Notes: generated by a model not told the origin, from the sequence alone. Numbered from the stretch's first letter, positions 33,185 through 37,839 are shown. The stretch: 42,685 bases of DNA from a virus (IMGVR_UViG_2563366963_000007), one strand, 5' to 3'. Numbers and translations are program-made.

Positions 33185-33201
33185 CACGCTGGTCAGGCGT
33201 G
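33185..33201 (-). repeat. CUGACCA-loop hairpin, copy 1
   Basis: Minus-strand RNA CACGC-CUGACCA-GCGUG, immediately after the DnaB stop and 8 nt before the next gene's ribosome-binding site. Confidence 0.6.
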
Positions 33202-33202
33202 G

Positions 33203-34645
33203 TTAAAATTCATTTGTGCGAGAATTATCGCTACGGGAATAACGTTTATTTTTTTCTGAGCGGTCGTTGGTAAGGCGATAAACCTCCTCATCGCTGATAT
33301 CAATAACTGAGCCATTTTTCATCAGGGCATAGGCTGTTCCCGATGGTCCTTCGCGGTTCAGACGTAGCAACATTTCCATGAGATTTGGGTCGGCATTTTC
33401 GTTATAAACAGCATCACGATAGAGGCCAATCCAGACATCGCAATCTTGTTCGATCTGCCCGGTATCTTTACTGTCGCTCGGGTTAGGCCGCTTATCGGCA
33501 CGTTCTTCAAGCTTTCGGTTGAGTTGCGTCAGCAGGACCACAACACAATCCAGCTCTTTTGCCAGGTTCTTCAAACCGGTTGTGATATCGCCATACGCAA
33601 TATCCCTACGCTCTGCCGATTCGGTCTTCATCAGCGTCAAATAGTCAATTGCCACCAGGCCAACCGAGCCACGCATCCGTTTAACTTTTCGACATTCAGC
33701 GACAATATGCGCAAGGGTTACACCTGCCGTGCTGTCAATCATCATGTTGGATTCGGCAATCTCCCCCGCCTTTGCTATTGCGAGACTCAATTCAGATTCA
33801 TCGTTAGGGCCAAGATAAAAAATCTCCGAATTGACCTTTGCTTCCTGCGCAACCATGCGTTCAATGAGACTTCTGTCAGTCATTTCCAGGCTAAATACCA
33901 GCGTCGGCAAACGATGATTCAGAGCAAAATGCACCGCAATTTTATTAAACGCGGCTGTCTTGCCCATTTTTGGCCGGGCACCAATAACGACCAATGAACC
34001 TCTTAACGCCTGCTTTGGTGCCATTAAGCGATCAAGGCTTTCGATTCCGAGCGTTAGTCCGGCTGCATGTGCTGGATCATTGAAACGGCGCTCAAGGTCA
34101 TCTATCCAGTCATCGACGACTTCACTTGCCGGACGCAAACCGCCCTTATGCCCGGTACGGGAATGTTCGGCCACCTGCCCAATCACTTGCTGAACGGCGG
34201 TGATCCTGTCAGTAGCAGTCATATCTGCAGGCTGGATCATAATCTCCAGACAAGAATTCAACTTTTCCACGGCATAACGAAGAATGGCTTTTTCACGTAC
34301 AATTTTCGCGTAGTTGACCATTGAGGCCGGAATCGCCGCCTTACTCATTTCAGCCAGGTATGCGAATCCCCCCACGCGCTCATACAGCCCCTTCGATTCC
34401 ATCAGTTCGGTCAGTGTTATCAGGTCAGTTGGTTTATCAGCTTGAAATAATCCTTTGATCTCCCGGTAGATAACCTGATGCGCATTGATATAAAACGTTT
34501 CCGGTTTCAGTAACGCAAATACCGCATTGGTTCTGTCGTGGTCGGTATTCAGCATCAGACAGCCCAGAACAGCCTGTTCTGCGTCAACGCTGTACAGTGC
34601 AATCGCGTTATTTATCATTTGCGCGTTCTTCCTTGACCGAAACAT
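33203..34645 (-). CDS. replicative DNA helicase (DnaB family)
   Basis: 480-aa ORF with Walker A GARPKMGKT and the characteristic DnaB N- and C-terminal domain pattern. Confidence 0.85.
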   Translation of the reverse strand: MFRSRKNAQMINNAIALYSVDAEQAVLGCLMLNTDHDRTNAVFALLKPETFYINAHQVIYREIKGLFQADKPTDLITLTELMESKGLYERVGGFAYLAEMSKAAIPASMVNYAKIVREKAILRYAVEKLNSCLEIMIQPADMTATDRITAVQQVIGQVAEHSRTGHKGGLRPASEVVDDWIDDLERRFNDPAHAAGLTLGIESLDRLMAPKQALRGSLVVIGARPKMGKTAAFNKIAVHFALNHRLPTLVFSLEMTDRSLIERMVAQEAKVNSEIFYLGPNDESELSLAIAKAGEIAESNMMIDSTAGVTLAHIVAECRKVKRMRGSVGLVAIDYLTLMKTESAERRDIAYGDITTGLKNLAKELDCVVVLLTQLNRKLEERADKRPNPSDSKDTGQIEQDCDVWIGLYRDAVYNENADPNLMEMLLRLNREGPSGTAYALMKNGSVIDISDEEVYRLTNDRSEKNKRYSRSDNSRTNEF

Positions 34646-35363
34646 AGCAGCGTTCGGTAATCAGATAATCAAGATTTTTACGCCGCCAGAATCCTCCCCT
34701 GCCATTTGGCCTGTCCTCCAGCATCCAGCGACAATTGCCACCGATAAATTCCAGATAGGCCCGCCAACGGGACTCATTGAAATTGAATTTTTTCCAGAAA
34801 GTGCGAAGGTGTTTTTTTCTGCCGTCAGTGAGGATTTTCACTGGTGGCATCTCTGGCAAAATCTCGTGATAGGTATCGAGTATCACCTGATAATTTATTC
34901 TCTGGTCGGCAGGTTGTTGGGTGTCGGCGTCAGCCGATTCACCATCAGTAATAATCTCTGTAGTATTCTCTGTAAGAATGTTTGTTGGTTTTCCACGTAC
35001 AGGCCTGGTGGTTTTCCCCTCACCTGTATGTGGTTTTTCCGCATCCTTGTATGCGGACGTAAGTAGCTGGCACAACACATCATTATCGATTTTGTAGTAC
35101 AGCCTGGCAGGCAAGCCCTGTTTACGTTCCAGCAAGACGCCGAGACCACGTAGTTTTTTGCGCGCGCCCTCCTGCTCGTATCGTGAAAGCCCTGTTTCCT
35201 CTTCCCACTCATCCTGGGTTTTATATACCCAGCCGTCGTCAGTTGTTCTGTTTGTCCAGTACGTCAACTGCGACAGAAACAATGCGGCAGTCACGCCCAT
35301 TTCAAGACGGATAAAACTTCTCTGGAAGGCTATGGGTCTATCAAGTAACGGGAGGATGTTCAT
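34608..35363 (-). CDS. replication initiation protein (O-like replisome organizer)
   Basis: 251-aa ORF directly upstream of the helicase gene; N-terminus resembles phage replication-initiator N-terminal domains. Confidence 0.55.
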   Translation of the reverse strand: MNILPLLDRPIAFQRSFIRLEMGVTAALFLSQLTYWTNRTTDDGWVYKTQDEWEEETGLSRYEQEGARKKLRGLGVLLERKQGLPARLYYKIDNDVLCQLLTSAYKDAEKPHTGEGKTTRPVRGKPTNILTENTTEIITDGESADADTQQPADQRINYQVILDTYHEILPEMPPVKILTDGRKKHLRTFWKKFNFNESRWRAYLEFIGGNCRWMLEDRPNGRGGFWRRKNLDYLITERCYVSVKEERANDK

Positions 35364-35584
35364 ATGCCCAAAGCCTCTGAGAGAACGCGACAGCCAGCCT
35401 CATAGGCAGCGCCAGAGAGATTTTGCTCACGCAGTTTCGCTTTTTCTTCTTCGTACTTTTCCCATACAGAACGTGCAGCTGCGACGCGGCCATCGAATAT
35501 GGGGCGGATCTCTGCAACATGTGCCGGGCGTCCATTCAGGTGCCAGCCGTTACGCCAGGTAATGCGGTCAATATGTCTTAACAT
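35360..35584 (-). CDS. hypothetical protein
   Basis: 74-aa ORF; ATG at 35584 preceded by GAGGAAAGACCG; 4-nt overlap with the O-like gene. Confidence 0.4.
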   Translation of the reverse strand: MLRHIDRITWRNGWHLNGRPAHVAEIRPIFDGRVAAARSVWEKYEEEKAKLREQNLSGAAYEAGCRVLSEALGI

Positions 35585-35607
35585 CGGTCTTTCCTCGGTA
35601 TAAGTTA

Positions 35608-35624
35608 AACGCTGGTCAGGCGCT
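35608..35624 (-). repeat. CUGACCA-loop hairpin, copy 2
   Basis: Minus-strand RNA AGCGC-CUGACCA-GCGUU (one G-U pair), starting at the stop codon of the CII-like gene and 9 nt before the next ribosome-binding site. Confidence 0.6.
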
Positions 35625-36100
35625 CATGCATGGTGGTCTTGCGCAGTGCGTATCACTGCTCCTCGCGTCGCTACCAGCGCCGCTATTGCTTCGTCAATTT
35701 CCTGAATAGTTAACTCTGGCGCGAAGTGGAGATGTACAGCGTTAATCGCTTCCACCCCTTCTTTTGCCGCCAGCGTTGCCAGCAAAACGGGATCGCCCGG
35801 CGACTCCAGACGTGCCCGCCGTTCTGCGGGTAGCACGGCTTTCATCACACTGGCCAGCACCTGAGTTTTTCGGCGCGCCGCCGTTGTCTCGCCACGTAAC
35901 CAGCGAAAGATTTTCTGCCGATTGTTGTTGATGGCTCTCCAGTCCACGTTGCCGTCCGCGTCCTCAAATTCATGTAGTCTCAACTCATCATTGCGTCCCT
36001 GACTGAACCAGGCCCGGCAGATTTCAATCGTGACGAGTTCCTGCCCTGCCCTTGCCGCCCAGGTCAAAATCTCTTTTTGTAATTCCTCTTGGTTTTCCAT
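35624..36100 (-). CDS. putative CII-like / early regulatory protein
   Basis: 158-aa ORF in the cII position (just after cro, before replication genes); family not firmly recognised. Confidence 0.35.
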   Translation of the reverse strand: MENQEELQKEILTWAARAGQELVTIEICRAWFSQGRNDELRLHEFEDADGNVDWRAINNNRQKIFRWLRGETTAARRKTQVLASVMKAVLPAERRARLESPGDPVLLATLAAKEGVEAINAVHLHFAPELTIQEIDEAIAALVATRGAVIRTAQDHHA

Positions 36101-36158
36101 AGCGTCTCCTGTCGCTAAAAATTGATTACGCTTAATCAGATTTGGGGCTCACCAACAG

Positions 36159-36389
36159 TTAAGCTGCTTCCGTTTTAGGCAAGCTGTCATCTGGGTTTGG
36201 GTAAAGATCCGGTCTAAGATCATGAGGGGTCACGCGCCATTCAAGAGCTTCAGATGTGCGCAAAACCTCTTCACCGGGAACCCGTCCTTTGAACCAGAGG
36301 CTTACCGTTTGTGGTTTTTTCCCTAATCGCCGCCCTAACTCGGATTGACTCATTACGGAAAGAATTTTGTCTTGCAGTTGTTTATCCAT
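36159..36389 (-). CDS. Cro-like repressor (HTH)
   Basis: Start reassigned to the ATG at 36389 with AAGGAG 5 nt upstream; MDKQLQDKILSVMSQSELGRRLGKKPQTVSLWFKG is a Cro/YdaS-type helix-turn-helix; divergent from the CI gene. Confidence 0.65.
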   Translation of the reverse strand: MDKQLQDKILSVMSQSELGRRLGKKPQTVSLWFKGRVPGEEVLRTSEALEWRVTPHDLRPDLYPNPDDSLPKTEAA

Positions 36390-37612: not shown

Positions 37613-37629
37613 CACGCCTGACCAGCGTT
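37613..37629 (+). repeat. CUGACCA-loop hairpin, copy 3
   Basis: Plus-strand ACGC-CUGACCA-GCGU; shares the exact 13-mer CGCCTGACCAGCG with copies 1 and 2. Confidence 0.55.
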
Positions 37630-37635
37630 GACCAT

Positions 37636-37650
37636 GAGCCTGACCAGCTC
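37636..37650 (+). repeat. CUGACCA-loop hairpin, copy 4
   Basis: GAGC-CUGACCA-GCUC. Confidence 0.55.
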
Positions 37651-37670
37651 AAAACAGGAAAGACCAGCCC

Positions 37671-37685
37671 GGGCCTGACCAGCCC
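37671..37685 (+). repeat. CUGACCA-loop hairpin, copy 5
   Basis: GGGC-CUGACCA-GCCC. Confidence 0.55.
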
Positions 37686-37740
37686 TGTACGGTCGTAATG
37701 GAAACATAACGACGCCGGAAACGTAACCGGCACCCTTTAG

Positions 37741-37766
37741 ATAGCAAAAGACCCGCACAAGGCGGG
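37741..37766 (-). terminator. minus-strand intrinsic terminator-like hairpin with no cognate gene
   Basis: Minus-strand RNA CCCGC-CUUGU-GCGGG followed by UCUUUUGCUAU; the plus-strand reading has no U-tract. Confidence 0.35.
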
Positions 37767-37803
37767 CCAGTTACCCCGAACGGCGACCAAACCATTCGGA
37801 TTT

Positions 37804-37839
37804 ATCACAAGTGACCAAACTTGTGATGAGGAAAGACCA
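37804..37839 (+). repeat. 8-bp hairpin with UGACCA-containing loop fused to an orphan GAGGAAAGACCA motif
   Basis: ATCACAAG-TGACCAAA-CTTGTGAT at 37804-37827, then GAGGAAAGACCA at 37828-37839, but the nearest in-frame ATG is too far for a normal ribosome-binding-site spacing. Confidence 0.45.

Follow-up and report, generated by a model that had tools for sequence, protein, structure and literature searches.

Which factor reads a small hairpin that recurs in the early transcripts of a prophage, always with the loop CUGACCA and each time on a different stem? The question is raised by the viral contig IMGVR_UViG_2563366963_000007 (42,685 nucleotides [nt]; hereafter, "the window" means this whole stretch of DNA), in which a first-pass annotation had pointed out five such hairpins and a sixth variant between positions 33185 and 37827 and had likened them to nut boxB hairpins. 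In our model, the hairpins are loop-loop docking sites that help a small antisense RNA to block translation, and the copies in the untranslated leader of the early-left operon serve this RNA as target or decoy; we give the model as a whole a probability of about 50%. The first-pass annotation had overlooked that the ribosome-binding site (RBS) GGAAAGACC is part of the element and that the gene of a complementary antisense RNA lies within the very stretch it described.

Hairpin and RBS as one module

All five CUGACCA-loop hairpins (stems of 4 to 7 base pairs [bp]) are present at the positions reported, and each folds as drawn (Table 1). CTGACCA occurs nine times in the window, where 3.5 copies are expected and 0 of 100 shuffled sequences got to nine; the remaining four copies have no stem. 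Three of the hairpins do stand in tandem in the early-left leader. The other two are found in the rightward operon on the minus strand and indeed come after the stop codons of the YdaT-family gene (called CII-like before) and of the DnaB gene, and their spacing to GAGGAAAGACC-N-AUG is 8 and 11 nt. Both precede the sequence ACCGAGGAAAGACC-N-AUG. RNAfold lengthens the stem of the AGCGC/GCGUU hairpin (35608-35624, minus strand) to 7 bp, which includes the YdaT stop codon, and its G.U pair falls in the mRNA sense. That every copy lies in the sense orientation of its transcript is correct for these five hairpins but not for the sixth, which is part of a minus-strand RNA.

Exact copies of GGAAAGACC number seven in the window (33166, 35586, 37593, 37657, 37830, 38253, and 41428), and all seven belong to the early region and share the orientation of the early transcripts. 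Four serve as RBSs of the genes for a 136-amino-acid (aa) protein, a 74-aa protein, the exonuclease, and the excisionase; the other three are in the leader and have no start codon. Phage BUCT708, a relative, has nine copies in 12.8 kb versus 0.12 expected. A scan of viral contigs with the pattern CTGACCA-N8-30-GAGGAAAGACC, in which the stems were left unspecified, returned at least 120 contigs with 117 distinct instances. A flanking stem of at least 4 bp is present in 101 of the 117 distinct instances. More than 100 viral contigs have the module in this order (hairpin, 6 to 22 nt, GAGGAAAGACC, start codon), and at least 12 different stems occur among them. When the loop was not specified, no other 7-nt loop came close to CUGACCA in frequency ahead of the GAGGAAAGACC RBS, and CUGACCA was seen there on 12 different inner stems.

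Compensatory stem changes under a fixed loop had been taken as the mark of a structured RNA with a specific binding factor. A structured RNA with a conserved loop on varied stems is what we see, but the stems are short and their inner GC...GC pairs are almost invariant, so that covariation is limited to stem positions 3 to 5. In the module stems, G.U pairs exceed A.C pairs (12 versus 4), which fits folding in the mRNA sense. BUCT708 is 72% identical to the window over the leader and keeps the hairpins with the loop variants AUGACCA and CUAACCA and with changed stems; its sixth hairpin has the same loop on an entirely different yet complementary 8-bp stem. Orthologues of leader hairpin 3 have loops of the form (C/A/U)U(G/A/C)ACCA on the stems GGGC, GGC, GAGC, GGA, and AGGC. 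BUCT708 itself (OM816834) is named a Stenotrophomonas phage, an unexpected host, as synteny, modules, and antisense RNA make it close kin of the enterobacterial prophage family.

Taken together, the CUGACCA hairpin is half of a two-part cis element, with the "barcode" RBS GAGGAAAGACCA as the other half; in our model, this element marks selected early cistrons of a family of lambdoid/P2-hybrid prophages. Two other roles were rejected. The module hairpin is no intrinsic terminator, since it is followed by AAAUAACC or UUAACUUAUACC instead of a U-run and is not called by a terminator scan, and a sigma-70 promoter within the module would have the wrong spacing, as read from the sequence. A loosely specified pattern scan of genome contigs gave chance matches only, in unrelated taxa. 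Some matches to cellular RNAs exist: GAAGCUGACCAG and GAGGAAAGUCC are present in E. coli RNase P RNA. The sequence GGAAAGACC is identical to positions 2057-2065 of 23S rRNA, the A2058 region (PMC12887398). These matches are probably coincidence. A further hairpin of the leader, GCCGG-loop-CCGGC at 37711-37734 on the plus strand, has the loop GAAAGA in most relatives, by which a copy of GGGAAAGACC is shown in a hairpin; it has few wobble pairs, with a slight bias to the minus strand (9 versus 2).

A predicted antisense RNA opposite the early-left leader

Inspection of the opposite strand of the leader points to a gene for a small antisense RNA, which, judged from the sequence, is very probably real. 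The predicted RNA starts with stem-loop 1 (SL1), and the same four-stem architecture (SL1, UUUCCUC, SL2, SL3, GGGGUAA, terminator) was obtained in every relative folded. SL2 is the sixth hairpin of the first-pass annotation, whereas SL3 is a seventh that had not been listed. For covariation, alignments of the 3' part of the leader were made with 59 to 63 distinct orthologues. On the minus strand (59 distinct orthologues), 94.8% of the cells pair and double changes are found in 18 of 27 pairs; 0 of 500 shuffles match this, and slid registers drop to 33 to 55% pairing. For SL2 by itself, the values are 99.2% of the cells and 8 of 9 pairs.

The strand follows from the wobble pairs. Read on the plus strand, the non-Watson-Crick pairs among distinct hairpins are 16 A.C versus 3 G.U in the sixth hairpin and 34 versus 2 in the seventh. 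Since A.C on the plus strand is G.U on the minus strand, both hairpins fold on the minus strand; the sixth thus exists as had been described, but its covariation fits the opposite strand. Counted over all rows, wobble pairs on the minus and plus strands number 19 versus 2 for SL2 and 95 versus 10 for SL3. Furthermore, in 48 of 49 orthologues, the minus-strand RNA has a stabler fold than the sequence of the opposite strand (mean minimum free energy [MFE], -59.5 versus -44.8 kcal/mol), SL1 is stabler on the minus strand in all 49, and the fold of the window's own sequence reaches -57.3 kcal/mol (z -6.0) on the minus strand versus -40.1 kcal/mol (z -4.4) on the plus strand. The strands could not be told apart by RNAalifold on the long leader alignment, but they could by the explicit wobble count and the per-sequence MFE. 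The MFE strand test was not used to assign a strand to the short module hairpins, where it is biased because UGGUCAG can close a U.G pair.

Both ends of the predicted gene are conserved. The predicted -10 hexamer TATAMT does not vary among 45 distinct orthologues, although indels flank it on either side, and always lies 6 to 7 nt ahead of the GAUC that forms the base of SL1, the 5' stem-loop; in a short subfamily, it is part of a textbook extended -10, TGaTATAAT. The terminator hairpin (37750-37768) has a U-run in the window on the minus strand only, and a U-run of at least 4 on the minus strand is present in all orthologues. In between, the seed GGUCUUUCC is invariant in 59 orthologues and is unpaired in the folds of both clades of the family described below. 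Rfam has no family at the hairpins or at the antisense RNA, either at the gathering score or at E values up to 5, and searches of the accessible literature gave nothing on the motifs, a phage CsrA, prophage antisense RNAs, or ZF40 transcripts and did not turn up a description of this system.

Next to the promoter region, a plus-strand hairpin at 37869-37888, just upstream of the RBS of the gene for a 106-aa protein, carries a conserved GAUC (a Dam site) in its loop. Its G.U pairs favor the plus strand, though the same GAUC is the base of SL1 in the antisense RNA, and the window has a duplication of about 20 nt here (GCTGATCAATATTCGCTGATC).

Complementarity to the early mRNAs and a possible mechanism

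The predicted RNA is complementary to the two parts of the module. Its seed, UUGGUCUUUCCUC, is perfectly complementary to GAGGAAAGACCAA at the RBSs of the 136-aa and exonuclease genes, matches the RBS of the excisionase gene over 12 nt, and matches that of the 74-aa gene with one G.U pair. The GACCA of the CUGACCA loops has its complement in the UUGGUC loops of SL2 and SL3, and the invariant cores of the two loop types, UGGU in the antisense RNA and ACCA in the targets, are exact complements. The order in the module (hairpin loop, about 10 to 15 nt, RBS) is antiparallel-colinear with the order in the RNA (anti-Shine-Dalgarno [anti-SD] seed, then the loop of SL2). Furthermore, the loops on both sides start with YUNR: UUGG in the antisense RNA loops and CUGA in most target loops, a minority having A or G first. 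A YUNR U-turn is a hallmark of the recognition loops of antisense RNAs (PMC4485353).

In our model, the partner of the hairpin-RBS element would be an antisense RNA of about 115 to 140 nt whose gene faces the early-left leader on the minus strand. A UUGGUC loop may dock on the GACCA that the mRNA hairpin presents in its U-turn loop (CUGA = YUNR); the seed would then pair with the neighboring RBS, and translation would be blocked for the 74-aa gene with the replication cluster, the 136-aa gene, the exonuclease, and the excisionase. That the seed targets the barcode RBSs and blocks translation is probable in our view. A role of the CUGACCA loops as docking sites for the UUGGUC loops is a closer call, which we put at even or slightly below.

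The tandem hairpins and the start-less GGAAAGACC copies of the early-left leader would be the cis target and, in addition, decoys. The leader segment 37614-37667 (hairpins 1 and 2 and AGGAAAGACCA) can be read as a colinear mimic of all three pairing sites of the antisense RNA, which suggests a decoy or an extended cis target. As the leader would carry such sites, strong leftward transcription could be expected to use up the RNA; that early-left transcription through the leader consumes the antisense RNA is speculation. An operator-like TTACAA...TTGTAA repeat was not found near the promoter of the RNA when the sequence was read there, and therefore, it might be possible that the RNA is made in lysogens as a post-transcriptional brake on replication, recombination, and excision.

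A matched change of seed and RBS in a sister clade

A search with the 74-aa protein led to Pectobacterium phage ZF40 (54% identity), whose genes are arranged in the same order. ZF40 has no copy of GGAAAGACC and eight of GGCAAGACC. Five of the eight serve as RBSs of early genes, namely those for the excisionase, gp05, gp13, gp16, and gp18. CUGACCA hairpins with the stems ACGG/CCGU and GCGC/GCGC precede two of the five, and two further copies are found in the early-left leader. Opposite this leader, right after the true start of the homologue of the 106-aa gene, the minus-strand elements recur as TATAAT, 7 nt, GAUC, and a four-stem RNA, whose seed is GGUCUUGCC. The RNA strand folds with -61.3 kcal/mol versus -38.2 kcal/mol for the opposite strand (z -6.5 versus -3.0). 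The gene product gp08 of ZF40 (4919-5407 in our locus L359) is annotated with 162 aa, whereas homology to the 106-aa family begins at the ATG at 5213; the additional N-terminal residues are encoded across the predicted antisense RNA gene, so that gp08 has probably been annotated too long.

In a second contig scan, 114 loci of the ZF40 type were obtained, whose RNAs have retained both the architecture and the UUGGUC loops. Seeds and RBSs were tallied over 110 loci with a recognizable RNA gene (the contigs are partly redundant). Together with the seed UUUCC, 353 of 358 RBSs are of the GGAAA type, three are GGCAA, and two are others (GGGAA and GGUAA); together with the seed UUGCC, 111 of 118 are GGCAA, seven are GGUAA, which is compatible through G.U pairing, and none is GGAAA. 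Without one trans-acting reader for all sites, it is difficult to account for a concerted change from A to C at five to nine dispersed sites and in the antisense gene, and the antisense RNA is the only candidate for such a reader that has independent support.

The barcode is common to heteroimmune relatives within a clade and is switched between the clades (GGAAAGACC versus GGCAAGACC), which would allow cross-immunity to superinfecting relatives. It is imaginable, though rather doubtful, that the prophage family has an RNA-only second layer of immunity, in which a constitutive RNA reads barcode RBSs and docking hairpins of replication, recombination, and excision genes, the leader acts as a sponge that flips the system at induction, cross-immunity results, and the clade switch was an escape event.

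Alternative readings

Several observations weigh against our model. Two of the four barcode RBSs of the window have no proper hairpin, and therefore, the hairpin is not needed for seed pairing. The complementarity between the loops is just 4 to 5 bp, and a minority of target loops deviate, with U, C, or G as the last base or A or C as the third. Because the seed is the antisense of the leader copy of the RBS motif, complementarity between seed and RBSs is inevitable. The switch from A to C defines just two clades and thus is one evolutionary event, each tallied locus was fetched via one module of its own type, and covariation of the RBS motif alone would also suit a protein that reads all copies. 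Moreover, the -35 region of the RNA promoter is poor in the subfamily of the window, and RNAduplex energies were not cleanly separated from background, the comparison of the RNA with all 57 translation-initiation regions being too noisy. With a hairpin that is not obligatory and a short loop complementarity, the hairpins themselves may have a protein partner or a structural role.

A protein partner was the default of the first-pass annotation. Its conclusion that a specific factor is implied agrees with our data; the choice of a protein is not supported by them. According to this reading, which we hold to be unlikely, the hairpins are bound by a phage or host protein that recognizes RNA in a sequence-specific way, be it at a boxB-like site of an unrecognized antiterminator or at the operator of a translational repressor such as the 60-aa CsrA-like protein of the early-left operon, and the antisense RNA acts in cis on the leader only. 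An invariant loop on varying stems is a classic signature of protein operators, and the boxB loop of phi21, CUAACC, is a U-turn hexaloop (PMC12550061) with which the heptaloop CUGACCA has C-U-R-A-C-C in common at the sequence level, so that the boxB comparison was reasonable. Nevertheless, the nut analogy is not supported. As had been noted, no N-like Arg-rich protein is evident: tblastn with the N proteins of lambda, P22, and phi21 gave only noise, the sole Arg-rich windows are not in open reading frames (ORFs) with start codons, and the first early-left gene, the usual place of N, encodes the acidic 106-aa protein. The boxA sequences CGCUCUUA and UGCUCUUUA have 34 one-mismatch matches in the window versus 34 expected, with none near any hairpin. 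The positions are wrong as well, because nut sites would occur once per early operon, promoter-proximal and upstream of the first terminator, whereas the leader hairpins are downstream of the intrinsic terminator at 37500-37524 and the rightward ones are deep in the operon, after the second and fifth genes, directly before RBSs. An antiterminator RNA of the HK022 put type was rejected, as there is no similarity and put is a two-stem element of about 70 nt beside the promoter. The 60-aa protein (41045-41227, plus strand) aligns without gaps to CsrA and has L2, L4, T5, G9, G33, P37, V42, R44, and E45; it is present in 51 related loci, and GGA motifs are abundant in the RBS and the leader. However, its similarity to CsrA is below threshold (Pfam E value of 0.097 with 13 bits versus a cut-off of 27; hhalign probability of 9.8%), and GGA, the defining contact of CsrA, is found in the RBS motif only. 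The CUGACCA loops have none, for which reason the hairpins were rejected as CsrA/RsmA sites. A protein would also leave unexplained why complementary UUGGUC loops are conserved on the RNA of the opposite strand in both clades.

Somewhat less likely still, the hairpins may be passive mRNA architecture, that is, intercistronic stabilizers, barriers to RNase E or 3' exonucleases, or RBS insulators, with a loop that is a by-product of common descent. The hairpins begin at the stop codon or at most 2 nt from it and 6 to 14 nt before the next RBS, their stems are short and mostly have the same GCGC core, and some barcode RBSs do without them, all of which would suit such a role. However, conservation of the loop far exceeds that of the stem, both among paralogues in differing settings and over the two clades, three tandem copies are found in an untranslated leader without any cistron junction, and the low stability of the hairpins (-6.5 kcal/mol) makes them poor exonuclease barriers. 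Boundary "linker" sequences are known for lambdoid phages, and the same cassette of about 40 bp stands before different genes in different relatives; the repeats might thus act as DNA, either as linkers for modular recombination or as sites of a DNA-binding protein. This is very improbable. Compensatory stem changes under a fixed loop are not expected for recombination or DNA-binding sites, every copy has the orientation of its transcript, the partner hairpins have G.U pairs in a strand-specific pattern that points to selection on RNA, and the concerted change from A to C at five to nine dispersed sites and in the seed of the antisense RNA would have no explanation.

Comparison with known systems

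The proposed antisense RNA resembles the C4 RNA of P1/P7 with its a1/b1 targets (RF01695 and RF03163) and the CI RNA of P4, immunity-type small RNAs of temperate phages whose loops pair with short repeats near the RBS of early transcripts. Unlike C4, which acts on one leader, the new RNA is antisense in cis to the leader of the early-left operon, combines a linear anti-SD seed with two identical loops, and would have several dispersed cistrons in both early operons as targets. With the C4 model (RF01695, clan CL00128), C4/a1b1 matches were obtained only at 31357-31554 and none at 37745-37881 at E values up to 5. The prophage has a C4 antisense RNA with a1/b1 targets and isrK at this place (31357-31554, minus strand), upstream of an ORF6N anti-repressor-type gene, which is a second, known antisense-RNA immunity module.

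In Staphylococcus aureus, C-rich hairpin loops of RNAIII pair with SD regions, and two loop-loop contacts are made with rot mRNA. Our model has several identical-loop hairpins, a bipartite recognition by loop-loop contact and RBS pairing, and a regulon set by a short RBS motif in common with RNAIII. Sequence and host are unrelated, however, the motif is in the spacer between SD and AUG (GACCA) with dedicated hairpins upstream, and the regulon would be the phage's own early genes. P22 sar and lambda OOP are short, terminator-ended antisense RNAs from the early region that lower early functions. The new RNA is likewise a short, terminator-ended phage cis-antisense RNA from within the early region, but sar and OOP act on one overlapping gene, whereas the only overlap of the new RNA is with an untranslated leader, and at least four genes outside this overlap match its seed.

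With the nut boxB hairpins of phi21, lambda, and P22, the module shares a short stem and a U-turn or GNRA-like loop, the CUAACC of phi21 being similar to CUGACCA/CUAACCA (PMC12550061); it differs by its heptaloop, the absence of boxA and N protein, the high copy number, and the location before RBSs and after a terminator. As in hok/sok, CopA/CopT, and RNAI/RNAII, YUNR is followed by complementary bases in the loops of target and RNA (PMC4485353), but only 4 to 5 loop bases are complementary here, and binding is presumably completed at a separate linear seed and not by helix propagation.

If the model is true, a prophage found in about 9% of complete E. coli genomes controls its early genes by an undescribed small RNA, and so do relatives in Pectobacterium and other Enterobacterales. 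The RNA would recognize phage genes as a set, through a shared RBS sequence together with a docking hairpin; this would explain why the RBS spacers are so oddly invariant and why the leader has 870 untranslated nt, and annotation would gain a new RNA family and a new family of cis elements. The two clades would provide natural orthogonal seed/RBS codes (A/U versus C/G) that are directly testable and could be reused as translational switches, and clinically important strains may have a post-transcriptional brake on prophage induction.

Prophage setting

The window is a complete prophage, which lies between yecA and the leuZ-cysT-glyW tRNA genes of E. coli. Its heads are lambda-like, its tail is P2-like, and its early region is lambdoid. 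The rightward operon on the minus strand encodes a cro-like gene, the YdaT-family gene, the 74-aa gene as the first cistron of the replication cluster, an O-like gene, DnaB, the 136-aa gene, and further genes. The plus strand has a cI-like gene and the early-left operon. The latter has a promoter-like site at 37020-37048 and its first ORF from 37912, leaving about 870 nt without an annotated gene; the first gene encodes an acidic protein, the 106-aa protein, and farther along follow the exonuclease (738 aa), Gp157, the 60-aa protein, the DUF4224 excisionase, and the integrase. A coding role for the leader was rejected: a 37-aa ORF annotated in BUCT708 is broken in the window, and the start codon behind the leader copy of the RBS is not conserved. 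The leader was found in 475 of 5426 complete E. coli genomes (about 9%), most copies being at least 99% identical to the window; ST131 strains are among the carriers of the prophage. The loci with the module belong to one syntenic prophage family with diverse repressors.

Table 1. Hairpins, RBS copies, and predicted antisense RNA in the window
Feature	Position	Strand	Remarks
Hairpin CACGC-CUGACCA-GCGUG	33185..33201	-	Intercistronic, 2 nt past DnaB stop; MFE -6.6 kcal/mol, z -3.6
Hairpin (UG)AGCGC-CUGACCA-GCGUU(UA)	35606..35626	-	Intercistronic, overlaps YdaT-family stop codon; core 35608-35624
Leader hairpin 1, ACGC-CUGACCA-GCGU	37614..37628	+	Sequence and fold; kept in phage BUCT708
Leader hairpin 2, UGAGC-CUGACCA-GCUCA	37635..37651	+	Sequence and fold; BUCT708 loop is AUGACCA
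Leader hairpin 3, GGGC-CUGACCA-GCCC	37671..37685	+	Sequence and fold
RBS GAGGAAAGACC-A-AUG of 136-aa gene	33162..33176	-	13 nt complementary to antisense RNA seed
RBS GAGGAAAGACC-G-AUG of 74-aa gene	35582..35596	-	Sequence
GGAAAGACC leader copy, without start codon	37593..37601	+	Sequence
RBS-like AGGAAAGACCAG, without start codon	37656..37667	+	Early-left leader
RBS GAGGAAAGACC-A-AUG of 738-aa exonuclease gene	38251..38265	+	Unstructured CUGACC 10 nt upstream
RBS GAGGAAAGACC-AUG of DUF4224 excisionase gene	41426..41439	+	Sequence
Predicted antisense RNA, ~137 nt	~37881 to 37745	-	SL1, single-stranded UUUCCUC, SL2, SL3, terminator
Predicted -10 hexamer TATACT	37888..37893	-	Putative promoter of antisense RNA
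Seed UUGGUCUUUCCUC	37828..37840	-	UUUCCUC, single-stranded anti-SD; UUGGUC, 3' arm of SL1
SL2 (sixth hairpin)	37804..37827	-	9-bp stem, minus-strand loop UUGGUC
SL3 (seventh hairpin)	37776..37799	-	Loop UUGGUC on minus strand, GACCAA on plus strand
Intrinsic terminator GGCCCGC-CUUGU-GCGGGUC-UUUU	37746..37768	-	Stem covaries

Other conserved elements of the leader

Two further stretches of the early-left leader are conserved. An RprA-like sequence at 37414-37524 (plus strand) closes with an intrinsic terminator, which is the first terminator of the leader. It reaches 37 bits with the Rfam model of RprA versus a gathering score of 70 (E value of 0.06); its stretch UUGCUGUGUKUAGUCUU and its terminator are kept in BUCT708 and many relatives, and it could be a phage-made mimic of RprA. 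The second element, about 160 nt long (37170-37330, plus strand), has no Rfam match, and its plus strand folds better in 80 of 92 variants. It contains the 20-mer GTAGCCGGAATGTGCAAGCC, which is present without mismatch in at least 120 viral contigs and also occurs in intergenic DNA of the unrelated phages SPN1S, Tyrion, P1-like D6, and SJ46.

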